Shown here: in pieces, positions 48,019-63,961 of the stretch
Layout: each line of letters opens with the position of its first letter
Numbering within the stretch: position 1 is the stretch's first letter
Virus record (IMG/VR): IMGVR_UViG_3300020451_000152
Location: 10,263-74,262 of that record
From: a virus
DNA length: 64,000 bases
Strand: one strand, 5' to 3'
Notes under the pieces: generated by a model
What the model was told of the DNA's origin: nothing
Seen by the model: only the letters and a program-made list of their open reading frames with translations
Database searches by the model: none
Program-made: the position numbers and the translations under genes

Positions 48019-48076
48019 ATTATATTCTATTAGTATTGAATAAACAATGGATGTGTGACAGTTATTTGATTGACCT
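48019..48076 (-). promoter_or_regulatory. Early promoter cassette 8: AGGTCAAT-N6-ACTGTCAC + 30 nt + TATAAT
   Basis: Box 48055-48076; -10 at 48019-48024. Confidence 0.8.
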
Positions 48077-49420
48077 TATATCAAATGTTAGTTCACCATG
48101 TACCTCATTTAAATCTACATGAGGTGCTAATAATGGGAACTTGTCAGCATAATCAGCACCCATACCATAAGACCACTCTACAAAATCTTTATAATTACCT
48201 GCAAAGTTAGGTAGGTCATGTCCAATATAATCATGTATTTTACCATAGATAAAATCTTGAGTCAATTTAGGGTCATTTGCAATAATATTATAAAAGTCAT
48301 CGGTAAAGTTTTGATCTTTATTTAATATACTGAAATTCATAATTTCTTTAGTGTTTAATAAATTCTTAGAATCTTTAACAATATTTCTCCAGAATGGTGA
48401 ATCATACTTAGAACCAAAATGATATATCCATGCCATATTTTTATACCAGTCATCAACAACTGTTTCATAATACCAGTCATTCAAATGATTAACTAGATCT
48501 TGATCATGAGGATTCCCAGTAAGTGCATAATCACATATTTGATTTGAAATATAATCATAATACATACCTGCCAAAGATTCTAATGGATCAATAAATCCAA
48601 TAGCATTGCCATTACGAATATATCTACCACTATGATGCACCATATACTTTGATAGTCTAGGTGTCCATTTAAATTTCTTGTATGGATAACCTAGTGCTTC
48701 AGGTATTATAGTTCTAAAATCTTTTAATGCCTCCTCCTCAGTTGTAATATTATCATTATAAGCATATCCAAATGTTCTCCTTGATTGTAATGGTATTCCA
48801 AACATCCACCCATTTTGATGAGCATATGATATAGTACAACCCCAATCTGCTGTTTCAGGTAATCTTAATGCTAATACACTATTTACAGTTACTAATATAG
48901 AATCCAAATAATTATTATCATTCAGCAGTGATTTACCACCAGTACAATCAATAACAAAATCAAATCTTTGTTGATATAATTCTGACTTAGATGATGATAG
49001 ATATACACCATCATGAGTAAACTTAATATCTTTTATACTCTCATCCCTTAGTGTCAAATTAGGTGTAAATTTTGGTAGGTAATCTAAAAAGAATTCACTA
49101 AAATATTTTGTATCAAAGTGCATACCCACTGAGTGTGGGTCTAACCATCTAACAAAATTGTGTTTTTTACCCCATCCAATAAACTTATTACCAAACTTAA
49201 CTGTAGTATCAAAATATTTCTTAAAATGAGGTACTGCTAGTGTTGTAGTATGTGCTATTTGTGATGGTAGGTCAGGTGTAGTTGACTCACCTATACCAAA
49301 TATATTGACATCGGAGTCATATATCCATGTCAATTCTGTATCAATATCTCTCTCATCAATTAACCTTAATAGACAATTGATGCCAACAACACCTGCACCT
49401 ATTACTGCTATCTTTTTCAT
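48062..49420 (-). CDS. Flavin-dependent tryptophan-halogenase family protein (PrnA-like)
   Basis: GAGVVG FAD motif, GIGEST, TVKFGNKFIGW (catalytic Lys position), FVIDCTG, GWMFGIPL, FIDPLES, SPFW. Confidence 0.85.
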   Translation of the reverse strand: MKKIAVIGAGVVGINCLLRLIDERDIDTELTWIYDSDVNIFGIGESTTPDLPSQIAHTTTLAVPHFKKYFDTTVKFGNKFIGWGKKHNFVRWLDPHSVGMHFDTKYFSEFFLDYLPKFTPNLTLRDESIKDIKFTHDGVYLSSSKSELYQQRFDFVIDCTGGKSLLNDNNYLDSILVTVNSVLALRLPETADWGCTISYAHQNGWMFGIPLQSRRTFGYAYNDNITTEEEALKDFRTIIPEALGYPYKKFKWTPRLSKYMVHHSGRYIRNGNAIGFIDPLESLAGMYYDYISNQICDYALTGNPHDQDLVNHLNDWYYETVVDDWYKNMAWIYHFGSKYDSPFWRNIVKDSKNLLNTKEIMNFSILNKDQNFTDDFYNIIANDPKLTQDFIYGKIHDYIGHDLPNFAGNYKDFVEWSYGMGADYADKFPLLAPHVDLNEVHGELTFDIRSIK

Positions 49421-49421
49421 A

Positions 49422-50807
49422 CTAATATGTTTTATATCCTATGGTTCCAAATTCCTCTGGTGAATAGCAATGATCTAACATATTAAAACGATCTGCATAT
49501 GGAGCACCTAGTCCAGTTGCTAATTCAGAAAATAATGTACGATCATTCATTATCACAAATGGCACAACTCTTTGTCTACCACCTATATCTTCAACATCAT
49601 TATCAATGTGAATGAGTTTTTTATAATCCTCATCAGTCCATTCATCATTCAACACTTCATCTAACCAAGGTTTTCCTGGAAAAAATGCAGGATGTAAATA
49701 TCTCTCTTGAGATAAGAACTTTCTTGCTTCTACTTTAATATCTTTCCAAAATTTTGTATCAAATCTTGAACCATACATGTACATGAATGATAGGTGTGAT
49801 TGATAATCCATTGCCAATAGTTCATAATATGTCTCTTCAACATGTTCTTTAATTTTCTCTATCCCCGATCCATCTTTATGAATGAAATGAGTGTACATTG
49901 CAATTGACTCACACATAACATGAACGCACTCATGATGACATGCAGTTAGTGGCATAATATCAATCAATGACGACCCATTTCTAATATATCTACCAGTAGT
50001 GGGACAAATAACATAATTAGATACTTTAGGAACCCAATTTCTTTTCTTAAACTTCCATGTACTCACATCATCATCAGGAAATGCTTCCTGAATATCTTTC
50101 ATAATTTCTTCATCAGTTGTATCTTTACGATGTATTGAATCATACATGTAAATCCATAACTGTTTACTCTTAAGAGGAATACCAGTCATGTGACCATATT
50201 TACCTGCATATTCAATACAATAATCCCAGTGACCTGCTTCTGGTTTTTCTAGAATGATAGCAGTATTTACTGGTCTAAGACTAGGATCACCATAAGCATT
50301 ACTATCAAAGAGTGGATTTTTCTCTGTACAATCAATAACATAATCATAATTAACACCATTGATAATTGCAGCATCAGGATTAATTAAAACAGAATCAATT
50401 TTTTCCTCTATAATCTTTACACCATCACCAAAACATTTACCACCATCTTTTACCATTGCAGTTCTAAACATTTCAATATCAAAGAACTTTGCAGTTTGTG
50501 AATGAAATGATAATTGAAAATTCTTATCACTTTGACCCCATCCAATATATTTGTACCCATGACAATCTTTAGCATCAGCATATTTTTCCATCCACCTTTT
50601 AGTCACATTTGACAATACTTGTAGACCATCAAAAAATGCAGGATTTGTACCTGACATCATTTCAGGGTAAACTTTATCAGGATCATGTATTAATACATAC
50701 TCATCATCTTTAAACATAGAGTATAAATTATATTTTGTGAGTTGTAACGATGCTAACTGTACAAAACCTGCTGCACTAGCACCCACCACTGCAATTTTTC
50801 TTGTCAT
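49422..50807 (-). CDS. Divergent tryptophan-halogenase-like paralogue
   Basis: Same layout (KIAVVG, YIGWG, YVIDCT, GIPL, RYIRNG, RFDTKFW) but with degenerate motifs. Confidence 0.7.
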   Translation of the reverse strand: MTRKIAVVGASAAGFVQLASLQLTKYNLYSMFKDDEYVLIHDPDKVYPEMMSGTNPAFFDGLQVLSNVTKRWMEKYADAKDCHGYKYIGWGQSDKNFQLSFHSQTAKFFDIEMFRTAMVKDGGKCFGDGVKIIEEKIDSVLINPDAAIINGVNYDYVIDCTEKNPLFDSNAYGDPSLRPVNTAIILEKPEAGHWDYCIEYAGKYGHMTGIPLKSKQLWIYMYDSIHRKDTTDEEIMKDIQEAFPDDDVSTWKFKKRNWVPKVSNYVICPTTGRYIRNGSSLIDIMPLTACHHECVHVMCESIAMYTHFIHKDGSGIEKIKEHVEETYYELLAMDYQSHLSFMYMYGSRFDTKFWKDIKVEARKFLSQERYLHPAFFPGKPWLDEVLNDEWTDEDYKKLIHIDNDVEDIGGRQRVVPFVIMNDRTLFSELATGLGAPYADRFNMLDHCYSPEEFGTIGYKTY

Positions 50808-51358: not shown

Positions 51359-51617
51359 CCTTTTTATATAATGAATTGATAGGTATGATCTTATCGTCAA
51401 GTAAGAAATCAAAATTACGATCAGGATCTTCAAAGTTCTCTTCTACATTATCAATGAATCCTTTTAAGTCTCTAATTAATTCCCAACATGAGTCTACCTC
51501 AAGTCTCTCCTCAGGTGATAGATCATCAAATCTACCCATACGAGCATAATAATTATATTTGGCAGTAATGTACTCCCTGACTTTAATAAAGTCTTTAAAT
51601 GTTGCTACTGCTGCCAT
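51345..51617 (-). CDS. Hypothetical protein
   Basis: 90-aa ORF overlapping both neighbours slightly. Confidence 0.65.
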   Translation of the reverse strand: MAAVATFKDFIKVREYITAKYNYYARMGRFDDLSPEERLEVDSCWELIRDLKGFIDNVEENFEDPDRNFDFLLDDKIIPINSLYKKDDPS

Positions 51618-52771
51618 TGTTTTACTACTGTAATGTTTGCTTTTCTAAAATCGTCATCGACAAACTTTAGTGCTGTACCGTTATATGATACCACATAACC
51701 CTCTGGTTGTGAAGGTCTATTGTCAACAAATGTCTTGATATCAGTAACCTTATTAAGTTGATTGATAATCATTTTCTTTGCTAAACGAATTGATAGATAT
51801 GATGCAACGGTAAAATATATATCCATTTCATACTTAGCAATGAACGCAATACCCATACTCTTCATATGCTCATATCTTTTCTTACCCTTTTCTGATTTCT
51901 TACTAGCAATCTCCTCATCCATCTTAGTTGAGTAGAACTTAGCAAACTGTTGAGCAACATTTCTAACACTACCTAATCCTTTACCTGATCTGATAACCTG
52001 ATTAAAGAACTGTTTGAATAATGTTGCCATCACAAATTTAGACTCACCATACTCTTGAATGATATCAAGAAACTTAGATGAACGCTTGAGTGATCCTTGT
52101 GCTTTGTTGATGATAGCAGTATACTTTGCTGAATCTCTAACATCAAAGTTTGACATACCAGTATAAACAGAACTAGCAACCCATACATCTTTAGTGCTAT
52201 TGTATTGTGGTGCTTTATTATATACTGCAGTAGATCCAGCGATAGTATCACCTTGATATACTGTATGGAATACTATACCTAACTCAGATGGTATAACTTG
52301 CTCACCTAATGGTGTGTTTGCCTGTATAGCATATCTTAGAGCGTTAGGTTGAAATGTAACATATTGAGTATCACCTATACTACCCCATGAACAATCACCT
52401 TGAGTGAATAATAAATCACCTTGAATAATACCTTTAATATTAAGTTGAGGAAGATATTTAAGACAAGTCTTTAGTTTATCTCTCAATATATTTGACTGAT
52501 AGTATCGATCAATATCTGTATCATCATAACATACTTTAGGTGTAACTTTATTGAATACAGATTTAGTACCAACAAAGAATCTACCAGTAACAGGATCAGT
52601 GCCACATACAATTGCTGGTGCACCATCCCATTTAGTACTGATAGTTAGAGTGCTCTTTCTACCTGATAAAACATAACCAAATTGTCTTAGTAAATCTACA
52701 ACCTCAATACCACCAGCAGTGCCAGTGTTAAGAATATTATCTTCGAGGTGCTCTAGGTGTGTGTTTTTCAT
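51605..52771 (-). CDS. Conserved T4-like cyanophage protein (DUF6267-like)
   Basis: MKNTHLEHLED, TKWDGAPAIVCG.DP..G.FFVGTKSVFNK, QGDLLF, FQPN, GIVFHT.Y.G, PEGYV, LKFVD. Start revised to 52771. Confidence 0.75.
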   Translation of the reverse strand: MKNTHLEHLEDNILNTGTAGGIEVVDLLRQFGYVLSGRKSTLTISTKWDGAPAIVCGTDPVTGRFFVGTKSVFNKVTPKVCYDDTDIDRYYQSNILRDKLKTCLKYLPQLNIKGIIQGDLLFTQGDCSWGSIGDTQYVTFQPNALRYAIQANTPLGEQVIPSELGIVFHTVYQGDTIAGSTAVYNKAPQYNSTKDVWVASSVYTGMSNFDVRDSAKYTAIINKAQGSLKRSSKFLDIIQEYGESKFVMATLFKQFFNQVIRSGKGLGSVRNVAQQFAKFYSTKMDEEIASKKSEKGKKRYEHMKSMGIAFIAKYEMDIYFTVASYLSIRLAKKMIINQLNKVTDIKTFVDNRPSQPEGYVVSYNGTALKFVDDDFRKANITVVKQWQQ

Positions 52772-52777
52772 ACCCTT

Positions 52778-52834
52778 ATTATAGTGCATGACAGGGTTTT
52801 TGGGGGGTTTTGTGGACAGTTTGTAATGTGTCAC
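52778..52834 (-). promoter_or_regulatory. Early promoter cassette 9: GTGACACA-N6-ACTGTCCA + 29 nt + TATAAT
   Basis: Box 52813-52834; -10 at 52778-52783; ATG 6 nt downstream. Confidence 0.8.
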
Positions 52835-53382
52835 CGAAATGCTTTCCCTGCTAAGTGTGCAACCATAGATCTCCTGATACCACGAGTAACAGGTGTAATC
52901 CTATGCAAACAAAAACTAGGAAATACAATCAATGTACCCTTATCTCTAGGTAAATCATCAAACAACTCTGTGTGATGTATTTGTAGATCACCACCATCAT
53001 ATTCATTACCATTACTAAGTTGTAATGAGAATCCAATCTTTCTTTGTGGTGCATCATCACTCAAATCATTATCTACATGCCAATTATAATGACAACCATC
53101 ATCTTCATATCTTATATATTGTAAATTCTCAAATCCTTCAGCATCAAAATGATACCATCTACTATTAATCTCTCTAGCAATATCACCAATACGATTATAA
53201 ATCCACTCTACATCTTTATCAAATGCTATAAATGAGTTCCAAGATTTACGAATAGGATTAATAGAACTGACATCAATTCCTGACATTTTGACACCAATAT
53301 CCTCACCAATTTGTGTTATTTTATCACACTCTTCATTGGTAAAAGCATTTGGTATGCAATGTGGATCTAATCTTGGATTCAT
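52831..53382 (-). CDS. 2OG-Fe(II) oxygenase, prolyl-4-hydroxylase/PKHD-like
   Basis: FT.EEC..I, WHVD, RKIGFSLQL, YDGGDL, VFPSF.LHRITPVTRG.RRS.V. Confidence 0.9.
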   Translation of the reverse strand: MNPRLDPHCIPNAFTNEECDKITQIGEDIGVKMSGIDVSSINPIRKSWNSFIAFDKDVEWIYNRIGDIAREINSRWYHFDAEGFENLQYIRYEDDGCHYNWHVDNDLSDDAPQRKIGFSLQLSNGNEYDGGDLQIHHTELFDDLPRDKGTLIVFPSFCLHRITPVTRGIRRSMVAHLAGKAFR

Positions 53383-53975
53383 TTAAATGGTGGTCCCACT
53401 AACCATACTACTAAACTTCTTCTAACACCTCTAGTCACTGGTGTGACCTGATGTAAAACATAACTTGGAAATACAACTGTTAAACCTTTTTCTTTAGGTG
53501 CAGTTGCTAACCTAGTTCCATGCAATTGGAAATCTCCACCATCATACTCTGTTGGATCTGACAATTGAATTGTCAACGACAACTTACGAGGTGGTGCATC
53601 ACCTTTGACCGCACCATCTGTGTGCCATCCATAGAATGAACCTGAGGAATCATACTTAGTGAACTGTAGGTCTTCATTAAACCCACTTATTTCAAATCTC
53701 CAGTGCAATCCATTCAGATTTCTAGATATACTCGCAATTCTATCATACACCCACTTAGTGTTATCAGTCAACTTTATCCAACTGTTTTGTGATTGTCTTA
53801 TATTATTTCTTACCTTAGACTCTGATGAACTACTACCAACAGTAGAATCTATTAATTGTTGTGACTCACCTAGTCTGATGATCTCATCGCACTCTTGTGG
53901 AGTAAACCCACCTTCCCAAGTAGCAAAGTCAGACTCATCGTATGTAGGATGAGGTAATATAGGATAATATGACAT
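53379..53975 (-). CDS. 2OG-Fe(II) oxygenase, prolyl-4-hydroxylase/PKHD-like (paralogue)
   Basis: FTPQECDEII, WHTD, RKLSLTIQLS, YDGGDF, VFPSY.LHQVTPVTRGVRRSLVVW..GP. Confidence 0.9.
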   Translation of the reverse strand: MSYYPILPHPTYDESDFATWEGGFTPQECDEIIRLGESQQLIDSTVGSSSSESKVRNNIRQSQNSWIKLTDNTKWVYDRIASISRNLNGLHWRFEISGFNEDLQFTKYDSSGSFYGWHTDGAVKGDAPPRKLSLTIQLSDPTEYDGGDFQLHGTRLATAPKEKGLTVVFPSYVLHQVTPVTRGVRRSLVVWLVGPPFK

Positions 53976-53981
53976 AATAAT

Positions 53982-55901
53982 TTAGTAAACGACTCGAATG
54001 TCACCTCCATTAGGTATGACTTGATAAGGAGTACCAGCGACTGCTCTTCCACCAGGTGCAGCACCAGGCATGCCCCAGTCACCACCAGCAACGCCAGGTT
54101 GACCAGGTGTGCCAGGTGTTCCTGGTTGTCCATCACCGCCTGGTGTGCCAGGTGTGCCAGGTGTTCCTGGTGTTCCGTCATCACCAGGTGTGCCAGGTGT
54201 TCCGTCTGATCCAGGTGTGCCTGGTGTGCCAGGTGTTCCACCGCTACCGTCTCCACCACCACTGCCAGGTGTTCCTGGTGTGCCAGGTGTTCCTGGTGTA
54301 CCATCTGATGCAGCACTACATCCAGCACTACCGCCAGGTGTACCAGAACTGCCAGGTGTACCACTTGAACCACCACCGCCAGGTGTTCCACCCTGACCAG
54401 GTGTTCCCGAAGTGCCAGGTGTGCCAGGTGTTCCCGAAGATCCTCCTCCGCCTGGTGTTCCCGAAGATCCAGGTGTGCCTGGTGTTCCGTCAGTTCCTGC
54501 TCCGCCTGGTGTACCAGAGGTGCCTGGTGTTCCTCCTGAAGATGATAGAGCATTTGTTTTATTGTTCCATCCTCTACCCTCAGATCCAGATCCACCGTAT
54601 CCTTTTACTCCCTTGACTCCATTATAACCACCATATCCTTTATTTCCACCTTGTCCACCATATCCTTTTGAACCTCCACCACCGCCAAAACCTTTTGAAC
54701 CGCCTTGACCTTTCGATCCACCAGAACCACCTGATCCTCCTGAACCACCGCCTCCACCTGAACCACCCGAACCTCCAGATCCTCCAGAACCTGGTCCTCC
54801 TCCAAAACATGCTACTTTATACTGTGATGTGTTTACTTGTTGTGCTGTATTTCTACTAGTTACCGTTACTTGTTCGGTAACAGTTGATCTGGATCTTCCT
54901 TGACCCCACCATCCTCTTCTACTCCTCCTAGTTTGTGCATTTGATGACTGTGATGTTGATACCTGTTGGAAGGCATATGTAAAGGACTGAGTTGTCCTTT
55001 GCATGCCAGGTGACCCATAGGATCCAGGTGAACCAGGCGATCCATCTGATCCACTAGAACCAGATCCACCGCCACTACCAGGTGACCCATCCGATCCATC
55101 ATTACCAGGTGAACCGTCTGAACCAGGTGAACCAGGCGATCCATCTGATCCATCTACTCCATCTACTCCATCAGAACCAGGAGATGTATTGGCAGAACCA
55201 TTAACTCCGTCAACTCCATCAACTCCATCAGATCCACCGCCACCACCTGCCCATATTCTAGAATCACCACCTTCACACTCAACAAATACAACACGACTTG
55301 ATGGTGCACCTGGATTTGTTATATTAATGGCATTACCACCTGCCTGTTGCTTTGCACCACCTGACGCAAAAATACCATCACCACTTGGTGTGTTATGTAC
55401 ATATAAACTTAGATTAGATGATGAAGAACTACCTATTGATAGTGCTGGTGTTGATGTAGAATTAGATATCATTCTACCTCTAATTCTCAAATATTTTGTA
55501 ATATTCTTATTAAGATTAGAGTTCCAATTAACATTAGCGGATGTTGTTGGAGATGATAATGTACCAGCATCAAAATATTCTTCTTCTGTATTTGGTTGCT
55601 GCTCAATAACATAATCTTTGATGACATTTCTTATATCATCAGGAGATAATTGTCCACTAGTAGGAACTCCTACATTCTCAGTAGAATCTAATAGGTATGG
55701 TTTATGTGGTGCTCCAGATGATGTAGGTAAAGATGCAAATTGATATGGTGCATCAAGATCTGTCTGTCTGTACATTTCAGATGCAGAAATTGGTGCATTA
55801 GTATTACCTATTGCTGTTCTTATATCTCCAAAAGATATCTGTGTTCCAGTACCACCAGTGAGAAGTATCTGAGTAGTATTTGACCAGTCATTTGCTGCCA
55901 T
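53982..55901 (-). CDS. Gly-X-X repeat (collagen-like / gp38-adhesin-like) virion protein
   Basis: N-terminal ISFGDIR...PISASEMYR fibre-tip-type domain; IWAGGGGG and GGDWG..G motifs like glycine-rich adhesins; long GTP/GSP/GSD/GGS triplet runs. Confidence 0.75.
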   Translation of the reverse strand: MAANDWSNTTQILLTGGTGTQISFGDIRTAIGNTNAPISASEMYRQTDLDAPYQFASLPTSSGAPHKPYLLDSTENVGVPTSGQLSPDDIRNVIKDYVIEQQPNTEEEYFDAGTLSSPTTSANVNWNSNLNKNITKYLRIRGRMISNSTSTPALSIGSSSSSNLSLYVHNTPSGDGIFASGGAKQQAGGNAINITNPGAPSSRVVFVECEGGDSRIWAGGGGGSDGVDGVDGVNGSANTSPGSDGVDGVDGSDGSPGSPGSDGSPGNDGSDGSPGSGGGSGSSGSDGSPGSPGSYGSPGMQRTTQSFTYAFQQVSTSQSSNAQTRRSRRGWWGQGRSRSTVTEQVTVTSRNTAQQVNTSQYKVACFGGGPGSGGSGGSGGSGGGGGSGGSGGSGGSKGQGGSKGFGGGGGSKGYGGQGGNKGYGGYNGVKGVKGYGGSGSEGRGWNNKTNALSSSGGTPGTSGTPGGAGTDGTPGTPGSSGTPGGGGSSGTPGTPGTSGTPGQGGTPGGGGSSGTPGSSGTPGGSAGCSAASDGTPGTPGTPGTPGSGGGDGSGGTPGTPGTPGSDGTPGTPGDDGTPGTPGTPGTPGGDGQPGTPGTPGQPGVAGGDWGMPGAAPGGRAVAGTPYQVIPNGGDIRVVY

Positions 55902-55912
55902 GCTGTATTACC

Positions 55913-58681
55913 TCAGGATAGTGTTCCTAATGAGATGGATCCGACTCCTATTACATTTAGTTTAGCAGTAGTACCATCAATAATAAATTCAACTCCAGTC
56001 GTAGCACTACCTACTAATGATCTCCATATACTATCAGATCCGTAAATCTGAAGTTGATTTGTTTGTTGGAAATAACACTGGTTAGAAGTACCCCAACCTG
56101 TAGTAAAGTTTGGTGGATTAACAGGTGATACACCACCACCTCCAGGTAAAGTATCTCTGTACTTTTCAAAACTACCTGATATTTGTTGGTCAATCACTCT
56201 TCCTTTAAATCCTCTTTCCATGAAGAAATCAAATCCAGGATCAGTTGCAAGACCAACAGGATCACCGTCTTCAAATCTTACAGTAAATCTTTTATTAGCA
56301 CCATCATACCACATGCTACCTGCAAAGTCACCATCAGCAACATCAACAACAGCAGGGTTATCTGGTATGCCACCACCAGGAGTATAATTTCTTGGTAAGA
56401 TAAATGCCTCTCCAGCATATCTCATATCTAACGAACCACCTGGATCACCACTGTTAATACCAATCCTACATGTAGTTGTACCAGCAACACCAACAGTTCC
56501 ACCTACCCCTGTATGATTATTCCAGAATGTTGTAGGTTTATAGACTTCAAATGTACCACCATTATTAGAAGAATTTATAGTTGTCGTAGTTCCGATACCT
56601 ACGCTACCCTCAAATATTGCTTGAGAGTTTGATAATACACCTGCATCTCTAATTAAACCAACATGTAATAAATCAGTTGCAGTTCTTTGACCTGAAGTGG
56701 ATCCAATACCTATACCCTTACCACCACTACCATCTGTTTGTACAAATATCTCAGCACCATTACCAATTTGTAAACCTTGACTAACTGTTGTTGTTATACC
56801 TGAAGCACCAATACCCATGCCCAAGTAACTAGCAAACATTCTTGTGTCTGTACCGTCACCAATTACTAAATTATTAACTGTGGTAACACCTTGGTAGGCA
56901 ATCAAGTTGTTAGCAGTAATTAAACCTGTTAATCCATTCAGATTTACATTTCCTACATCAACTGTTCCAATACCACTAACAGTTAAGTTTCCACCAACAT
57001 CAAGAGAATTTGTTGTAATAATACCTGCAATCTTAGCGTTGCTAACTTCAACCTTACTACCAAAGAATCCATCAGTACATGATGAATATCCAGATGCAGT
57101 AATATCTGCAATACCTCTCAATGATCCTGAGAATGTAGCACCACCAGCAACTACAATACCACCGCCAACATCTACTATTCCACCGTTAGCATTAATTCTA
57201 CCAACTGTAAGAGCAGCACCAGGTAGATTAATACCACCCAATCCCAAACTACCACCAGTAGTGAGATTTATATCTCCACCAAGTGTAGCACCACCACCTA
57301 CAACTAATCCACCACCTGTTCCAGTAAGACCACCATTAGCTACGACTCCACCACCTGTAAATATTCCTGATCCACTTGATATGATAGATCCACATGTAAA
57401 TGCACCACCTACAGTCATACCTTGAGCAGTATTCAACTCATCACAAGTTATATCTCCATCAAATATCATGTCACCTGCACCAGTGACAGTACCAGTTAAT
57501 GAAGTGATACCAGCAACAGATAATCCAGCACCAACATTTATTGTATTAACATCAATATCTCCACCAATATCCAAATTACCAACAATACTTCCACCAATAG
57601 CAATACTACCACTAAGAATTATATCTCCATCAGATACTCTAACAGTACCAATAAATCCTGCTGCCTGTCCTGAAGCTGATGATGTTGCACCAACACCTAA
57701 AAACTCACCTACCAATAAATCCTGTCCTATTGTACTGATACCATTACCATTAATAAAGGCAGGTGCTAATCCTGTTGTTCGTAATTCTTCTACCTGAATG
57801 GAAGGATCACCCAATAAACTATATGCAGTTTGAGCACCAACAGCAGTAGATGCTGTTCCACTAAATGTTGTAGCAGTAATTATTCCTGCCTCTGCAACCA
57901 CTCCACCACTAATTTTTAATGTGCTGAAACTTGTAATACCTGTAAATGTTCCTCCTACACCAGTAATATAATTAACATCAATATTAGGCGTGTCAGTTAA
58001 ACCAGCAGCAACATTTGCTAATGCTGCGTTAGTAACCGTACCAATAAATTGAGGTGCTTCTATCTGTGAAGTTGCAGTGATAGTAGAGAATGTACCAACA
58101 TCACCAACAATAGTGCCTTGACCACTTCCAGTAACATTGACAGCAGTTATATTCTTTCCTACTAATCCTTCAAATGTTCCAACGCCACTGTTGGCATCCA
58201 TGTATATCTCATAACCTACAGCAAAATCTGATCCTCCCCTTGGAATCTCTGTTCCTATACCTACATCTTTAAGGGCATATATCGTATTACCACTACCAGG
58301 ATTATTCCATACAGATGCTGGTAGTCCTGTTAATCCTGCACCATTACCACTAAATGACTGTGCAACCACATTACCATCAGCATCAACAGTAAATCCAGTA
58401 GTTCCAATACCAACTTGAAATACTGCTTCAGGAACTGTAGTTCCAATACCCACTGAGGATCCAACAGAAACATTTAAGTTATCTCTTATACTTGTCACAC
58501 CAGTGACAGTTAAATCATGCAACTCTGAGTGATTATCAACAATTACATTACCTCGAACATCGAGTTGTTGCCTGGGTATGGTACTACCAATACCCACCAG
58601 ACCATTATTAGATATCAGGTCATCAGTATCAACCTGAATACCATCTCTAAAATTGATGACAGTTTTATAATTGCTAGGCAT
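55913..58681 (-). CDS. Glycine-rich tail fibre protein
   Basis: Repeated VGIG(T/S)T.P...L.V.G motifs, F.G.G..LT, Gly-rich beta-helix-like centre. Late promoter ATAAATA upstream. Confidence 0.75.
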   Translation of the reverse strand: MPSNYKTVINFRDGIQVDTDDLISNNGLVGIGSTIPRQQLDVRGNVIVDNHSELHDLTVTGVTSIRDNLNVSVGSSVGIGTTVPEAVFQVGIGTTGFTVDADGNVVAQSFSGNGAGLTGLPASVWNNPGSGNTIYALKDVGIGTEIPRGGSDFAVGYEIYMDANSGVGTFEGLVGKNITAVNVTGSGQGTIVGDVGTFSTITATSQIEAPQFIGTVTNAALANVAAGLTDTPNIDVNYITGVGGTFTGITSFSTLKISGGVVAEAGIITATTFSGTASTAVGAQTAYSLLGDPSIQVEELRTTGLAPAFINGNGISTIGQDLLVGEFLGVGATSSASGQAAGFIGTVRVSDGDIILSGSIAIGGSIVGNLDIGGDIDVNTINVGAGLSVAGITSLTGTVTGAGDMIFDGDITCDELNTAQGMTVGGAFTCGSIISSGSGIFTGGGVVANGGLTGTGGGLVVGGGATLGGDINLTTGGSLGLGGINLPGAALTVGRINANGGIVDVGGGIVVAGGATFSGSLRGIADITASGYSSCTDGFFGSKVEVSNAKIAGIITTNSLDVGGNLTVSGIGTVDVGNVNLNGLTGLITANNLIAYQGVTTVNNLVIGDGTDTRMFASYLGMGIGASGITTTVSQGLQIGNGAEIFVQTDGSGGKGIGIGSTSGQRTATDLLHVGLIRDAGVLSNSQAIFEGSVGIGTTTTINSSNNGGTFEVYKPTTFWNNHTGVGGTVGVAGTTTCRIGINSGDPGGSLDMRYAGEAFILPRNYTPGGGIPDNPAVVDVADGDFAGSMWYDGANKRFTVRFEDGDPVGLATDPGFDFFMERGFKGRVIDQQISGSFEKYRDTLPGGGGVSPVNPPNFTTGWGTSNQCYFQQTNQLQIYGSDSIWRSLVGSATTGVEFIIDGTTAKLNVIGVGSISLGTLS

Positions 58682-58708: not shown

Positions 58709-61700
58709 TTATTTATCTTTGATGTCATCGACCTGTTGTGACAAGTCTTTGACTGCCTCTATTAATAGAGGAATTAATTTATTATAGTGGACACCCTTAG
58801 TGCCGTCAGGTTTAGTAGATACTGCTTCAGGAAGAACCTTCTCTACATCTTGAGCAATGACACCAATGTCATGCCCTTGGTAGTTCTTGTTACCTTCCTT
58901 CCAATCATATTCAGTACCACGAATACTAACAAGTTTCTCAAGAGGATTATCTAATGTAGATATATTCTCTTTTAATGTAGCATCAGATGATTGACCATAG
59001 AATGCGATAATATCATCACAACAATGAATAGGACCACCACAGAATGTAACACCAGCACCACTGAAGAATACATCACCACTAAAGGTAGTGAATCCAGTAA
59101 TGTTAGTTTGTTGGTTAAAGAATACTGGTGCATCATATGCAGTATCAGTTGCAATAGCAACCTTAAATCCTGGTGCTGCATTAAGAACTAGATCACCAGT
59201 ATTAAACTTGGTAGTAATCTCAGTCTTATTAGTTCCAACACCAACCTCAACATTATTAATCTTTGCACCGTTAGGGAATGAACCAGTAAAGTCAATAGTA
59301 CCAGCAAGTTCAATACTACCACTAGATACAACCTTACCTGTGAAGTTTACATCATTTGTAAATGTAACAGGACCATCAAACTGTGACAAGATATTTTGTT
59401 GAGCACCACCCTCAACATTGATTCTTTGTTTAACTGTGATTTCATCAACAACTATAGAGTTAGCAGATGGATCTTCACCAGTGATAGTAGGAATAGGAAT
59501 ATCAAATGATTTTTCCTGTCCAGTAGCAGAGTTAATCTTCTTGTTACCAATGAAGAAATCACCTCTGTTGTTTAGTCCAGTGTAAACAACTGAACCACCA
59601 CTTCTATTTTGTGCTTGAGATAGATACTCTTCAATCTCATTCAATGATCTATTCTGTACCTGTGGTAGTGATGTTGAATAGTTACCAGGACCATAACCAA
59701 GATATTCAAATGTGTGACCTGATGCACGAAGGATAGAAGGTCTTCTTGTTTCTACTGGGAGAACATTAACTTTCTTAAGTAGAGAATCAATAGGATGTGT
59801 TTTAGGTACTGTACCCATTTGTCCACGGAGAACCGTGAGTGAGTCATTACCAGCACCAGATAGTCCTGTTGATGATACTCTTACAATTTCCTCACCAATT
59901 TCCAAGTAATCTCCTAATTGGAATCTATTAGCAGTACCAATACCACTTGAATGTTGTACTGGAATTGATGTAGCAGTATTTGTGATATCTGTCTTAAGAC
60001 CAACAGAGTCACCACCATAGAAGTTAAAGAATCTAGATCCAATAGCTTCGTTGACATTAACCTTCTGATTGTTATCGGAGAAGGCATGTCTTAGTAATCT
60101 AAAGTTACTGGTAACTGCTGGATCAGTAACAGTTCTAGAAGTAAATGATGTAACACCACTCAATATATTATTAATGTAGTAATCACCAACCTTTTCATCG
60201 TTGGCATTTATTAATGTGAACTGACCACCCTGTCTAAATCCATGAGCACCACTTGTAACAAATGTAGTAATACCTGTTGTGCTATCAAACTCAGTAGAAG
60301 CAATAGCAACAGAAGGTCCGACTCTGAAAATAAACTGACCTGCCATTATGGTAGGTGATGTAGTTTGTATACCAATACTAAATGATGTCTCATCAACAAC
60401 AGATAATATTCTATAGTATCCATCATCTGTCTTACCTAAACCAGTTACTTGAATAGCATCGTTAACATTGTTTATGATACCTGTAGTTGGTACTCCAATT
60501 GATGCACCATCAAAATTCTCAGGGAATAATGTTTCACCACCTTGATATCCTGAACCAAAACTCTGTATATCAAGACCAGTGATTTGAGTAGATCCAACAC
60601 CTACAGTTACAATAGCAGTTGCACCCTTCCAATTCTGACTACCATCTAGCAATCTAACATTATATTTGGTAGTAACAGCAAATCCAGTTCCACTACTAAA
60701 TGGTGATAGATTTTCATAATCAATGAATCCATTAAATGTGTGTTGACCAGTCAATTGAACTGTAGCTACACCTGCAGATACAGGAGTAACACTAGACACA
60801 CCAAATCCTACACCAAATTTAGTTGAGAATTTATTAAGTGATTCTCTAGTAACAGAGTTAAGTAAACTATTTGTCTCAACCCTACCAACTGGATCTCTTC
60901 TTGCAAATGATACAGAAGGTGGTGGGTTCTTTCTAATATTATCTCTATCTAACTGTGGATAGAAGTCAGTAACCTGCTGACTATACTTCTGATCTGTAAA
61001 TTCTGTTGGTGGTGCGTAGTCAGATGCTATGACTTCTAATAAGTAAACACCATCACTCTCATCTTTAACCCAATCAGATAGAACTGTAGATCTATAGATA
61101 TCAAAATTACCTTTATTATTATTAACACTGAACCTAGGTAGATCAATAGTTCTATTTGAGTTCTGTTCTACAAAATTACCAGTATTCTTTTTATCACCCT
61201 CAGTATCAGTATTAGCATACTGGAACTCCATATTATTAGGAACAGCAGTTACAGTATAGTAACCATTATATCCTTTATTATCAACAGCTAAAGTATTATT
61301 AGAGTCTTGGATATTTTGAGTGTAGACAATATCACCAACTTTAACATTATGAGGTAATTCTGCCCTCACAGTTACGGTATCAGATACTTCACTACATGTA
61401 GCAATGAATCCATATGATCTCTTGAACTTTGTATCTTGTGCTGTAATAGATGTAGCAGTAATATCAGATGTCTTTGCAAAACCAGTAGAACCTGTATTTT
61501 GAATAATAAATCCATCAACAGGATTTCTAGAGTTCACTGCCTCTTTTGGTATTACATATCTAACTTTATATAATTTGTTCTCGATACCTCTAGTATCATC
61601 ATATCTCTTGAAGTATGAAGCATCTGTCTCTACTAATGACTTGATATAGTCATTATTAACTATATTATTGAACAGATCAGAGTCAGTTTCAGTTAAAATA

Positions 61701-63961
61701 TACCAGTTATTTTGATTATTATCATACTGAACTGGGTGACCAGCAGTATTTGATGACTTATCACTCACTCTACTCTCAAGTCTTAGACTATCACCACCAT
61801 ATAATGCAATAGGAATATTATTAACAGCATTAGAGAATGTCTTAGCAACTTTAATAGCAGTTGGACTGACTACAATAGCATAGTATACAGTATTAGGAAG
61901 TAAACCCTCAGGCAAATCACCTGTATCACTTAATATACGAATAGTCTCTCCATTAATAATACCAATATCCTGAACTGTTAGTTCAAAATTAGTATTTGGT
62001 AGTCCTAATGTTGAGAACTTAGTACCTTGATGTAAATTAGTTCCTGTATTAGCAGTTTGTATACCACCAGTTACATTCTCAGGCATATAAACTGGTGATC
62101 CAAACTCAGTACCACCAATTGATACATATAATTTTTCATTTAAATTAGAACCAATTCTAAATCCCTGAGTTAATTCTAATGGTGCTACATCTTCTCTAGT
62201 AAATCCAGAAAGATATAAATGTGATGATATACCTGCTTGTTGTGTCTTAGCAATATCTAATTGGAACCAAGTAATATTATCTAAGTCTTCACTATATTGT
62301 GACACCCACTCAGGTGATACAACATGTGTAATATATCCTTCATCGTCTCTTGGGAAAGCAGAGTCTCTAAATCCATCAGTGACTAGAGATAACTGTCCAA
62401 AGTTAGAGTTGGAGTTAGTAATTGAAGCATCAGCACCACTCTCACCTACAAAATGTGCATTATAACCAATAGCAAACACAGAAACTATCTGTAGAACAGC
62501 ATCTTTTACAATCTTAACATGACTTTGTTCCCATCCCTTCCTATAAATTGCACTACTATCTAAATGATATACAGTACTAGGGTCAGTAGAACTAGATTCT
62601 GCTGCTAACGCTGCACCTTTAACTGTTTGATATGCAATAGATTCGTATAGTCTTGTCTCTTTATTAAATTTAACAAATGCTCTATCATCCTTCTGTAGTG
62701 ATATACCAGTGAACTGGGCAACAACCATTGATCTAAATCCATCTGCCTTAGATCCATCTGCCTTCATACCATTCATACCATAGACTGATCTTAAAGAACA
62801 GTTAAAGATATATGGTGATGCACCTTTTACTGTATCAGATTCAATGGTAACTCTAGCAGCACTAATATTAGTTGGTTTAGCAGGTAGGTTGCTTGGGAAA
62901 TTAGTAATTACATAGGTAAACTCTGTATCAGACACAATACTTTGTACTGTTGTAGAGACATTGTATGTTGCAACATTGACACCACTTATCTTAACAGGAG
63001 TTCCAGCAGTAAATCCATGCTCTCCCTGTGTAGTAACTGTTACTTGTGATGTAGGAGTCAATCCATCACCAGCAATAATTGATGTAACAACTAGTGGGTC
63101 AGTACCTAGAGCACCAACAATTTCATATTCCTCTCTAACCTTATCAAAATCACCCTCAAAGTTTGGCCACTCATAGTTAACTGCACGACCAGTTGGTTCC
63201 TGATAGGCATAACTTAACTTATAGTAGTACATGCTAAGGTCAGTATTATCATACCCCTTAACATCATTAACACCATCAGCATACTCAAAACAAGTCAACT
63301 TGTGGTGAGAGAATGTTGGTTTAGACTGATTCTGTACTGTAAACTGTTGATGATCAGTATATACTAATCCATCTAGAAGTCCATCAAACATTGAGAACTG
63401 CCAGAAATAACAGTTACCAGTGATTCTGAACAAAGCAGATTCAGGGACAGTATCATCTGTAGGGTTAGGAACATACTTAGGTCGTATCTTTGTCTTTCTT
63501 AAATCTAATCCAACAATAGATGTACCACGAGGTATAATTACACCACCATTAACAGAGTTAAACTTATAAAGTATATTATCTTCTACAGTTAAATCAAATT
63601 CACTAGTCAATGATAGACTAAGAGTTGAAGTGGCAAGAGTCTCTGCTCCTGCAGGAGATACTACTACTGCTCTTGTAGCATCTGTTGGGTCTACCTTAAT
63701 ACCAAAACCAGGTCTATTATCAACAGTATGCTCACCTGGATATATTAGAATAGTTGTTTTATCTGATTCATCGTTATCATTACCAGATTGATATGAAAAT
63801 CTAGCAGATTCTAACAGTGCTCTCTGTATCGTCTTAAACGGTTTGGTAAGAGAGTTACCTTGATTTGTAATACTATCGGTAGAGTCCAAGTCATTTGGAT
63901 TAACATAGAGAATTCTACCCTCAGTATTCTTTATAAAATTCTCTAACTTATTTAAAGGCAT
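58709..63961 (-). CDS. Tail fibre/tailspike with C-terminal peptidase S74 intramolecular chaperone
   Basis: MPLNKLENFIKN..GRILYVNPND N-terminus, PFKTIQRAL; C-terminal SSDATLKENI...IRG.EYDWK...IGVIAQDVEKVLPEAV...V.YNKLIPLLIEAVKDL. Confidence 0.88.
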   Translation of the reverse strand: MPLNKLENFIKNTEGRILYVNPNDLDSTDSITNQGNSLTKPFKTIQRALLESARFSYQSGNDNDESDKTTILIYPGEHTVDNRPGFGIKVDPTDATRAVVVSPAGAETLATSTLSLSLTSEFDLTVEDNILYKFNSVNGGVIIPRGTSIVGLDLRKTKIRPKYVPNPTDDTVPESALFRITGNCYFWQFSMFDGLLDGLVYTDHQQFTVQNQSKPTFSHHKLTCFEYADGVNDVKGYDNTDLSMYYYKLSYAYQEPTGRAVNYEWPNFEGDFDKVREEYEIVGALGTDPLVVTSIIAGDGLTPTSQVTVTTQGEHGFTAGTPVKISGVNVATYNVSTTVQSIVSDTEFTYVITNFPSNLPAKPTNISAARVTIESDTVKGASPYIFNCSLRSVYGMNGMKADGSKADGFRSMVVAQFTGISLQKDDRAFVKFNKETRLYESIAYQTVKGAALAAESSSTDPSTVYHLDSSAIYRKGWEQSHVKIVKDAVLQIVSVFAIGYNAHFVGESGADASITNSNSNFGQLSLVTDGFRDSAFPRDDEGYITHVVSPEWVSQYSEDLDNITWFQLDIAKTQQAGISSHLYLSGFTREDVAPLELTQGFRIGSNLNEKLYVSIGGTEFGSPVYMPENVTGGIQTANTGTNLHQGTKFSTLGLPNTNFELTVQDIGIINGETIRILSDTGDLPEGLLPNTVYYAIVVSPTAIKVAKTFSNAVNNIPIALYGGDSLRLESRVSDKSSNTAGHPVQYDNNQNNWYILTETDSDLFNNIVNNDYIKSLVETDASYFKRYDDTRGIENKLYKVRYVIPKEAVNSRNPVDGFIIQNTGSTGFAKTSDITATSITAQDTKFKRSYGFIATCSEVSDTVTVRAELPHNVKVGDIVYTQNIQDSNNTLAVDNKGYNGYYTVTAVPNNMEFQYANTDTEGDKKNTGNFVEQNSNRTIDLPRFSVNNNKGNFDIYRSTVLSDWVKDESDGVYLLEVIASDYAPPTEFTDQKYSQQVTDFYPQLDRDNIRKNPPPSVSFARRDPVGRVETNSLLNSVTRESLNKFSTKFGVGFGVSSVTPVSAGVATVQLTGQHTFNGFIDYENLSPFSSGTGFAVTTKYNVRLLDGSQNWKGATAIVTVGVGSTQITGLDIQSFGSGYQGGETLFPENFDGASIGVPTTGIINNVNDAIQVTGLGKTDDGYYRILSVVDETSFSIGIQTTSPTIMAGQFIFRVGPSVAIASTEFDSTTGITTFVTSGAHGFRQGGQFTLINANDEKVGDYYINNILSGVTSFTSRTVTDPAVTSNFRLLRHAFSDNNQKVNVNEAIGSRFFNFYGGDSVGLKTDITNTATSIPVQHSSGIGTANRFQLGDYLEIGEEIVRVSSTGLSGAGNDSLTVLRGQMGTVPKTHPIDSLLKKVNVLPVETRRPSILRASGHTFEYLGYGPGNYSTSLPQVQNRSLNEIEEYLSQAQNRSGGSVVYTGLNNRGDFFIGNKKINSATGQEKSFDIPIPTITGEDPSANSIVVDEITVKQRINVEGGAQQNILSQFDGPVTFTNDVNFTGKVVSSGSIELAGTIDFTGSFPNGAKINNVEVGVGTNKTEITTKFNTGDLVLNAAPGFKVAIATDTAYDAPVFFNQQTNITGFTTFSGDVFFSGAGVTFCGGPIHCCDDIIAFYGQSSDATLKENISTLDNPLEKLVSIRGTEYDWKEGNKNYQGHDIGVIAQDVEKVLPEAVSTKPDGTKGVHYNKLIPLLIEAVKDLSQQVDDIKDK

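Follow-up and report, generated by a model that had tools for sequence, protein, structure and literature searches.

How does a phage gene come to encode four long, separate runs of Gly-X-Y triplets, and what would the folded product look like? We encountered this question in a stretch of 64,000 nucleotides (hereafter the window) from an uncultured ocean T4-like phage (IMG/VR record IMGVR_UViG_3300020451_000152, positions 10,263 to 74,262), in which an open reading frame on the minus strand at 53982-55901 encodes a protein of 639 aa. An earlier note, made from the sequence alone, had read the product as an adhesin-like protein whose chain goes out and back twice to form a four-helix polyproline-II (PPII) rod rather than a collagen trimer. 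Our results confirm the observation and support much of this interpretation, although several of its details are weaker than proposed. The parts of the locus, all on the minus strand, are as follows.

53982..55901 (-), whole gene of the 639-aa Gly-rich adhesin, stop codon included
55245..55901 (-), N-terminal domain, aa 1-219, predicted gp38-like attachment domain plus beta-solenoid, ending in VECEG...RIWAGGGGG
54999..55244 (-), segment 1, aa 220-301, 6 + 20 Gly-X-Y triplets (GVD/GSD/GSP), acidic, inferred outward strand
54801..54998 (-), distal insert, aa 302-367, predicted long two-stranded beta-hairpin with net charge +8; the tip RRSRRGWWGQGR lies at nt 54885-54932, and C365 (nt 54807-54809) sits at its base
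54585..54800 (-), segment 2, aa 368-439, 24 triplets (GSG/GxK), Gly in two of three positions, basic, inferred returning strand
54534..54584 (-), proximal linker between segments 2 and 3, aa 440-456 (GRGWNN...SSSG), constant length in all homologues
54327..54533 (-), segment 3, aa 457-525, 23 triplets (GTP/GSS), inferred outward strand
54303..54326 (-), distal turn between segments 3 and 4, aa 526-533 (AGCSAASD), with C528 (nt 54318-54320)
54078..54302 (-), segment 4, aa 534-608, 25 triplets (GTP/GDD), ending in GGDWG, inferred returning strand
53985..54077 (-), C-terminal strands, aa 609-639 (GRAVAG..YQVIPNGGDIRVVY), which complete the N-terminal beta-solenoid in the model
53379..53975 (-), 2OG-Fe(II) oxygenase A, 198 aa, P4Hc/PKHD-type, starting 6 nt after the adhesin stop
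52831..53382 (-), 2OG-Fe(II) oxygenase B, 183 aa, a paralogue of A (44% identity) whose start overlaps the end of A
55913..58681 (-), upstream 922-aa tail-fibre protein, the presumed carrier of the adhesin (gp37 position), ending 11 nt before the adhesin start

The repeat itself is not in doubt. Gly stands at every third residue without a break in the four stretches, except that the 6 and 20 triplets of segment 1 (aa 220-237 and 242-301) are split by a four-residue NTSP break, and the boundaries lie within a few bases of those in the earlier note. With 26% Gly overall, runs of 20 or more in-phase Gly cannot arise by chance. The compositions are also as the note described: segment 1 is GS[D/P]/GVD with a net charge of -11, segment 2 is GSG/GxK with a net charge of +6 and Gly also in Y in 16 of 24 triplets, segment 3 is GTP/GSS with a net charge of -1, and segment 4 is GTP/GxD with a net charge of -6. 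The insert between segments 1 and 2 holds the motif TRRSRRGWWGQGRSRS at aa 324-339. However, where the note counted two Cys there are three, namely, C209 in the invariant VECEG of the N-terminal domain, C365 in VACF, and C528 in AGCSA. The gene is conserved as an intact reading frame in 64 distinct homologues.

Is the protein a gp38-type adhesin? Its genomic context supports this view. The gene sits directly behind two tail-fibre genes, the nearer of which encodes the 922-aa protein, a phrog_3269 tail protein whose N-terminus is shared with cyanophage tail-fibre proteins, and the same gene order was seen in eight related loci (L001-L008) and in the cultured Synechococcus phage S-SRM01. BLASTP of the 922-aa fibre against S16 gp37, however, gave only low-complexity matches. 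At the sequence level, the relationship is remote. The protein has no hit to PF05268 even at E 10, and of 49 compact relatives only 4 hit that family weakly (best E 1.5e-4), but a comparison (hhalign) of the profile of the compact relatives with S16 gp38 gave 77% probability (E 2e-5) over gp38 residues 34-158, and a profile alignment to 6f45_D paired GGaaGRAi.G with gp38 GGAAGRAVVG. Searches of a phage collection, by megablast with the locus and by tblastn with the whole protein or its N-domain, found nothing, and only one compact relative (P0008) reached a cultured phage, S-SRM01. A sequence search of the PDB returned collagens, but the top hits, 8zxl and 9ius, proved to be human collagen fibril models, such that the match is compositional only.

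The predicted structure was more informative. In an AlphaFold (AF2) model of the protein, pLDDT was mostly 75-95 in the N-terminal domain and 85-93 in the C-terminal part, which has strands at 621-638. While Foldseek against the PDB gave no significant hit (the best was PP01 gp38 at E 0.73), an exhaustive search (VIA) of 48,161 representative chains placed S16 gp38 (6f45_D) at Z 11.5, with 211 of 248 residues aligned over model residues 12-636, and PP01 gp38 (9v85_C) at Z 11.1, far above the next hit at 6.4. In the model, the first 220 aa and the last 30 aa belong to a single gp38-like attachment and beta-solenoid domain, and everything between them is an excursion made of the four segments. 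Furthermore, the proximal linker between segments 2 and 3, in which a 14-aa landmark spacing is invariant and pLDDT is 61-83, corresponds in position to the part of gp38 between PPII helices 2 and 3 that adds a layer to the beta-solenoid, the last layer of which comes from the C-terminus (10.1101/2023.11.25.568672).

If the chain goes out and back, the segments should change length together, which is the test that the earlier note had proposed. The result was clear. Among the 64 distinct homologues we found 25 length combinations, with segment 2 spanning 50-83 aa and keeping fixed offsets to the others in 62 of 64. Segment 4 minus segment 2 was +1 in 53 homologues and -2 in 9, segment 3 minus segment 4 was 8 in 52 and 14 in 10, the slopes were about 1, r was at least 0.95, and all steps were multiples of 3. 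In these 62 the lengths co-varied exactly over at least 14 length classes, and on a tree of the N-domain there were at least 14 changes of segment 3 and segment 4 length, always together. In the two exceptions (homologues L066 and L042), segment 2 alone is shortened. Given that the turn between segments 3 and 4 is only 8 aa, that the linker between segments 2 and 3 has constant length, and that the termini share one domain in the model, we infer that the chain runs out and back twice.

Our best explanation, to which we assign a probability of roughly 0.6, is that the gene encodes a distant and remodelled relative of the gp38 tail-fibre tip adhesin of T2/S16-type phages, placed at the end of the fibre encoded just upstream. 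We infer that the four segments are polyproline-II/polyglycine-II helices that pack side by side in antiparallel register, and that segment 2, which has Gly in two of every three positions, is the strand with the most neighbors; Gly content rises with the number of neighboring helices (10.1101/2023.11.25.568672). In gp38 and in compact cyanophage relatives, the equivalent strands are about 5-6 triplets long; here they would be stretched 4-5 fold into a rod of about 20 nm (15-25 nm across the family). By analogy with gp38 the protein is most simply a monomer, although the choice between monomer and trimer is not settled. Yet the rod itself is modelled with low confidence. In the models of both this protein and the shortest homologue (L063), only the proximal 10-25 residues of each segment reach a pLDDT of 70-90, while the middle and distal parts remain at 35-45, so that no model shows the long rod and the antiparallel packing is inferred from topology and length coupling rather than seen. 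In addition, no PPII bundle with helices longer than about a dozen residues is known, and one Gly face per strand in segments 1, 3, and 4 may be too little for a stable four-strand bundle without partners. A test for register between Pro and non-Pro triplets of segments 3 and 4 gave no signal in either orientation, and a match seen by eye in the window protein does not generalize. Nor is the pairing of acidic segment 1 with basic segment 2, as the note envisaged, a conserved property. Charge profiles gave a mean r of -0.27 in antiparallel alignment against -0.03 in parallel, which is suggestive in this subfamily, but the signal is weak or absent in the short-rod subfamilies.

The distal end of the inferred rod carries the insert between segments 1 and 2. 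The insert is predicted as a long beta-hairpin both here (strands 300-323 and 341-364) and in L063 (277-302 and 314-339), with the Arg/Trp motif at its tip. The predicted basic hairpin is 60-74 aa long, or roughly 8 nm, the Trp is invariant, the Arg clusters are conserved, and some subfamilies carry symmetric Cys pairs across the hairpin. The short turn between segments 3 and 4 would lie at the same end and is probably tied to the hairpin base by a C365-C528 disulfide, as the note suggested, but this rests on the near-invariance of the two residues, whose equivalents are present in all 64 metagenomic homologues, and on one homologue (P0005) in which they are lost together. With respect to function, the rod may act as a rigid spacer or needle whose length is tuned to the host envelope, presenting a conserved cationic and aromatic tip to an anionic surface component such as LPS or the outer membrane. 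This remains an inference, and we have no evidence that the protein is in the virion.

The genes that follow the adhesin offer a further clue. An orthologue of oxygenase A follows the adhesin gene directly in 61 of 61 loci, while the second copy, oxygenase B, is present in only 7 of the 61. Both proteins exceed the PF13640 cutoff of 27 bits (53.5 for A and 51.2 for B), and their Fe(II) and 2OG motifs are intact (H118-T-D, H175, and R185-R-S in A; H102-V-D, H160, and R170-R-S in B). All 36 prolines of the segments lie in X-Pro-Gly. The oxygenase most likely hydroxylates the Y-position prolines and so stiffens the PPII strands, but this is inferred from association only, and while a prolyl hydroxylase is the probable reading, it is unproven. 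PDB sequence hits include PiuC/PKHD hydroxylases and the PBCV-1 prolyl 4-hydroxylase 5c5t (E 7e-7), but the proteins match PKHD/PiuC-type hydroxylases of unknown substrate better than proven collagen P4Hs, the nearest named families (PKHD/YbiX/PiuC-type) fall below cutoff, and cyanophages carry many such oxygenases.

Other architectures could be reconciled with parts of this evidence. The one we take most seriously, though we consider it unlikely, is an oligomeric folded rod in which a homotrimer or other oligomer forms four parallel collagen-type triple helices that fold back beside each other, or in which 12 strands form one polyglycine-II lattice. The fibre that carries the protein is presumably trimeric, long Gly-X-Y runs with Pro in Y and a P4H-like partner are hallmarks of collagen, one Gly face per strand suits a triple helix, and the length coupling demands side-by-side packing only, not a monomer. 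Nevertheless, the homologous domain of gp38 is a monomer on a trimeric tip (PMC12032242), an 8-residue turn would have to reverse three chains at once, segment 2 with its abundant Gly in Y and a single Pro is a poor triple-helix former by established collagen stability rules, and the four segments have four different compositions, as expected for four different environments. Prediction of a complex of three copies of the whole rod of L063 (aa 216-506, 28-row alignment) gave an ESMFold2 ipSAE of 0.00 in two runs, which we use neither for nor against a trimer.

A serial collagen-like fibre, with four triple helices laid end to end and interrupted by small globular domains, is much harder to sustain. 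The sequence does resemble collagen, with an NCBIfam Scl2/SclB hit and a PF01391 score of 23.6 bits that is below the cutoff of 27.2 here but rises to 55 bits in P0005, and collagen-like tail fibres are common in phages. But this arrangement gives no reason for four segments to keep fixed length offsets through at least 14 length changes, the single gp38-like domain formed by the termini in the model forces an even number of passes, and C365 and C528, which are conserved together, would lie more than 20 nm apart. We also regard as improbable a compact sandwich, in which each segment zigzags into several short PPII strands joined at Gly-rich patches, as the unbroken Gly-X-X sequence of snow-flea antifreeze protein does. 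In its favor, strands in known PPII bundles are short, as they are in the compact relatives, and GGG/GGS patches occur every few triplets within segments 3 and 4. However, these patches are not conserved in position among homologues, runs of six or more consecutive GTP triplets offer no turn sites, and length classes differ by single triplets in all four segments at once (50, 53, 59, 62, 65, 68, 71, 77, 80, and 83), whereas a meander would be expected to change by whole strands or hairpins.

We found no published description of such a protein. If the rod is real, it is a new structural solution, that is, a thin, rigid, single-chain spacer built only from PPII helices with a length that can be set in steps of about 0.9 nm, which is of direct interest to protein designers working on PPII bundles. 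For phage biology, it would add a third style of T4-like fibre tip beside the T4 gp37 tip and the T2/S16 gp38 cap, and rod length classes may track differences in envelope thickness among marine picocyanobacteria or other hosts. A bolder view, which we hold only tentatively, is that a single chain builds the antiparallel rod, that evolution adjusts it one helical turn at a time in all four strands at once, that a dedicated phage prolyl hydroxylase stiffens it, and that the phage uses it as a needle to push the conserved Arg/Trp hairpin through the outer layers of the host. This would give the abundant "auxiliary" oxygenases of cyanophages, which have been read as metabolic genes or as secondary-metabolite enzymes (PMC2938197), a first natural substrate.

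How does the protein compare with known systems? With the gp38 adhesins of T2/T6/S16/PP01-type phages (PDB 6F45, 9V85; PF05268) it shares the gene position behind the distal tail-fibre gene, the predicted N-terminal attachment domain and beta-solenoid completed by the C-terminus (GGxAGRAVxG motif), and, by inference, Gly-rich strands that leave and return to the solenoid with the linker between strands 2 and 3 on the proximal side. In gp38, five Gly-rich motifs form ten short PGII helices; here there are four strands, each 50-83 aa long instead of about 6-10, with Pro in the Y position of three of them, one large and conserved predicted basic beta-hairpin in place of four hypervariable 4-residue loops, and an oxygenase partner. 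The compact cyanophage proteins, represented by S-SRM01 gp053 (YP_010670028), which is annotated "adhesin tip complex," and by about 70 metagenomic cluster representatives, have a homologous N-domain (E down to 1e-15), the same position behind the fibre genes, and the same landmarks in the same order (GGGGG(G), a Trp-rich insert, GRG[WY]NN, a Cys turn, GGDWG, and a C-terminal G.NY.V.G motif). Their four strands, however, are only about 5-6 triplets long, they are rich in Cys (6-14) and poor in Pro, and no oxygenase follows directly in S-SRM01 or in the loci L010-L012.

Known glycine-rich PPII helical bundles likewise have Gly at every third residue and, as is only inferred here, successive strands that are joined by short turns and are therefore antiparallel, stabilizing disulfides at the turns, and an expectation that the most Gly-rich strand has the most neighbors (10.1101/2023.11.25.568672), but they contain 6-14 short helices, whereas this would be four helices that are each 5-8 times longer, an unprecedented aspect ratio, with a length adjusted in evolution one helical turn at a time. 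Collagen and the bacterial and viral collagen-like proteins with prolyl 4-hydroxylases (animal collagen, Scl2, BclA, PBCV-1 P4H 5C5T, and mimivirus collagen hydroxylase) share the long unbroken Gly-X-Y runs, the X-Pro-Gly sites, and a P4H-superfamily 2OG-Fe(II) oxygenase encoded next to the candidate substrate. Yet the length coupling, the short reversing turns, and the placement of both termini in one predicted domain argue against a simple parallel triple helix in series, Pro is never in X, and segment 2 is nearly free of Pro and rich in Gly at Y. Finally, the dioxygenase/halogenase gene arrays of cyanophages (Syn9 gp38-gp54; Iyer et al. 2010, PMC2938197) also cluster P4H/PKHD-type 2OG-Fe(II) oxygenases and Trp-halogenase-like genes in a T4-like cyanophage. 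Secondary-metabolite synthesis was proposed for those arrays, whereas here one oxygenase family is fixed directly behind one fibre-tip gene in 61 of 61 loci, which points to the presumed virion protein as the substrate.

The sequence under study belongs to a 74-kb IMG/VR virus contig that is estimated to be about 35% complete, and its genes resemble those of T4-like cyanomyoviruses at 35-45% protein identity. The gene of interest lies in a tightly packed row on the minus strand, which runs in the following order:

58709-63961, minus strand: 1750-aa tail fiber with a C-terminal Peptidase_S74 intramolecular chaperone domain (aa 1659-1714)
55913-58681, minus strand: 922-aa tail-fiber protein
53982-55901, minus strand: 639-aa glycine-rich protein, starting 11 nt after the preceding gene
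53379-53975, minus strand: 2OG-Fe(II) oxygenase, after a 6-nt gap
52831-53382, minus strand: second 2OG-Fe(II) oxygenase, a paralog of the first, with overlapping stop and start
51605-52834, minus strand: DUF6267 protein (373 bits), again with overlapping stop and start
48062-50807, minus strand: two tandem FAD-dependent Trp-halogenase-like genes, a few kb downstream in the same row

Given its terminal domain, the 1750-aa fiber is probably cleaved at its C terminus after trimerization. The DUF6267 protein keeps its place in the homologous loci L001-L008 and is widespread in cyanophages (471 phage records), although it has no known function.

In the 639-aa protein, Gly occupies every third residue without interruption over aa 220-237 plus 242-301, 368-439, 457-525, and 534-608, which correspond to 26, 24, 23, and 25 triplets. 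These four segments lie where the earlier note had placed four Gly-X-X runs, and their compositions are also as it described. An insert between segments 1 and 2 (aa 302-367) carries an Arg/Trp motif. However, the protein contains three cysteines (209, 365, and 528), not two as the note had stated.

A search with the nonrepetitive N-terminal 220 aa recovered close homologs of 550-673 aa, along with about 70 cluster representatives of a wider family of 350-700 aa. The wider family is Gly-rich and Cys-rich, with only short runs of 5-7 triplets. Two of the public protein clusters, P0002 and P0006, end in peptides that are typical of translated sequencing-adapter sequence (…LLYTSDAADA and …SYTHLRAHET); they are truncated at contig ends and are not short natural forms. 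A profile of the compact relatives aligned to S16 gp38 over the attachment and beta-solenoid domains and the first glycine motif (hhalign 77%, E 2e-5), while hmmsearch against the PDB also picked 6f45_D and paired the C-terminal GGxAGRAxxG motifs. In addition, an AlphaFold2 model built from a 60-row alignment was confident for aa 1-235 and 590-639. When this model was aligned to 48,161 representative PDB chains, gp38 of S16 (Z 11.5, 211 of 248 residues, model 12-636) and of PP01 (Z 11.1) stood far above the next hit at 6.4. Finally, a cultured relative, Synechococcus phage S-SRM01 gp053, is annotated as "adhesin tip complex," lies behind that phage's fiber genes, and shows the same landmarks in the same order: GGGGGG, a Trp-rich insert, GRGYNN, a Cys-containing turn, and GGDWG. 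The protein is thus a remote gp38-type adhesin.

The earlier note had proposed that the chain runs out and back twice, forming a four-helix PPII rod rather than a collagen trimer, and that homologs should be compared for coordinated changes in length. We collected 8 loci from IMG/VR and 70 from metagenomes, which yielded 64 distinct full-length proteins, and measured distances between conserved landmarks: GGGGG, the Cys before segment 2, [GA]RG[WF], the Cys of the turn between segments 3 and 4, and GG[DN]WG. Segment 2 ranged from 50 to 83 aa. In the main subfamily, the classes 50, 53, 59, 62, 65, 68, 71, 77, 80, and 83 all had segment 3 = segment 2 + 9, segment 4 = segment 2 + 1, and segment 1 = segment 2 + 5 or 6. 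A second subfamily, which has a 74-aa insert, kept offsets of +12, -2, and -3 over four classes. Overall, segment 4 minus segment 2 was +1 in 53 and -2 in 9 of the 64 proteins, every step was a whole number of triplets, slopes were about 1, and r was at least 0.95. On a tree of the N-domains, the lengths of segments 3 and 4 changed at least 14 times, always together, while the insert and the linker between segments 2 and 3 stayed constant. Only two homologs, from loci L066 and L042, broke the rule. In these (adhesin ORFs at 4001-5581 of L066 and 120-2003 of L042), a highly repetitive segment 2 alone is 21 aa or 9 aa shorter than in near-identical relatives (L062 and L039), which could reflect assembly collapse of the GGS repeat or a recent variant in which the mismatch is tolerated.

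Such coupling has no explanation if the segments are collagen helices in series or flexible linkers, but it is what side-by-side, in-register packing predicts. Because the N and C termini belong to one domain in the model, we infer that the chain must make an even number of passes and that, with a turn of only 8 residues between segments 3 and 4, neighboring strands must be antiparallel. Yet, the middle and distal parts of the segments had pLDDT values of 35-45 in both AlphaFold2 models, such that neither model shows the rod. Our results support the architecture proposed in the earlier note, although the physical rod and its oligomeric state remain to be shown, and we lean toward a monomer only by analogy with gp38 (PMC12032242).

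At the distal end, both AlphaFold2 runs predict the insert as a two-stranded hairpin of about 24 residues per strand. Across the family, the strands vary, but the tip keeps an invariant Trp flanked by Arg clusters (RRxRRGWWGxGR, RRKRYGGWPRSRR, and RRREWWSRYP). Several subfamilies carry extra Cys pairs that are placed symmetrically on the two arms of the insert, as expected for cross-strand disulfides; examples from L050, L053, L070, L077, L019, and L006-type loci include C-x8-WW-x6-C around the tip and QWCW...ECQPC near the base. Furthermore, C365 at the hairpin base and C528 in the turn between segments 3 and 4 are present in all 64 proteins and are both missing in the homolog P0005, which is consistent with a distal disulfide. 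The invariant Trp also makes the tip a candidate substrate for the viral halogenases. The tandem halogenase-like genes described above are found likewise in loci L001-L007, and in S-SRM01 a "tryptophan halogenase" gene sits between the fiber gene and the adhesin-tip gene.

Both oxygenases retain the HxD...H and RxS motifs and score 51-53 bits on PF13640. Their neighbors by sequence in the PDB are PKHD/PiuC hydroxylases and the prolyl 4-hydroxylases of PBCV-1 and Bacillus anthracis, and they are 44% identical to each other. All 36 prolines of the segments occupy the Y position, which is the X-Pro-Gly site used by collagen P4Hs. In 61 of 61 homologous loci with enough downstream sequence, an orthologous oxygenase gene begins within a few bases of the adhesin stop, and seven loci have two. 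In contrast, it is lacking beside the compact, Pro-poor relatives in S-SRM01 and in loci L010-L012. Prolyl hydroxylation of the adhesin is therefore the most likely role of these enzymes, although this is unproven. The oxygenase and halogenase arrays of cyanophages had previously been read as secondary-metabolite genes (Iyer et al., PMC2938197).

We found no publication describing this architecture. The published topology of gp38 is the same as the one inferred here: a solenoid layer is contributed by the linker between PPII helices 2 and 3, the last layer comes from the C terminus, and helices with more neighbors are richer in Gly (10.1101/2023.11.25.568672). Segment 2, which has Gly in two of three positions, fits the best-buried strand. 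Unlike the loops of gp38, the tip is conserved, and we infer that it more likely contacts a conserved anionic or membrane component than a variable protein receptor. A conserved 4-residue break (aa 238-241, 55179-55190) is present in all homologs after exactly six triplets of segment 1. Because six triplets is the whole length of strand 1 in compact relatives, the break may mark where the ancestral base ends and the extension begins. In S-SRM01 gp053 the strands are only 5-6 triplets long, whereas the clade examined here has stretched the four strands 4-5 fold.
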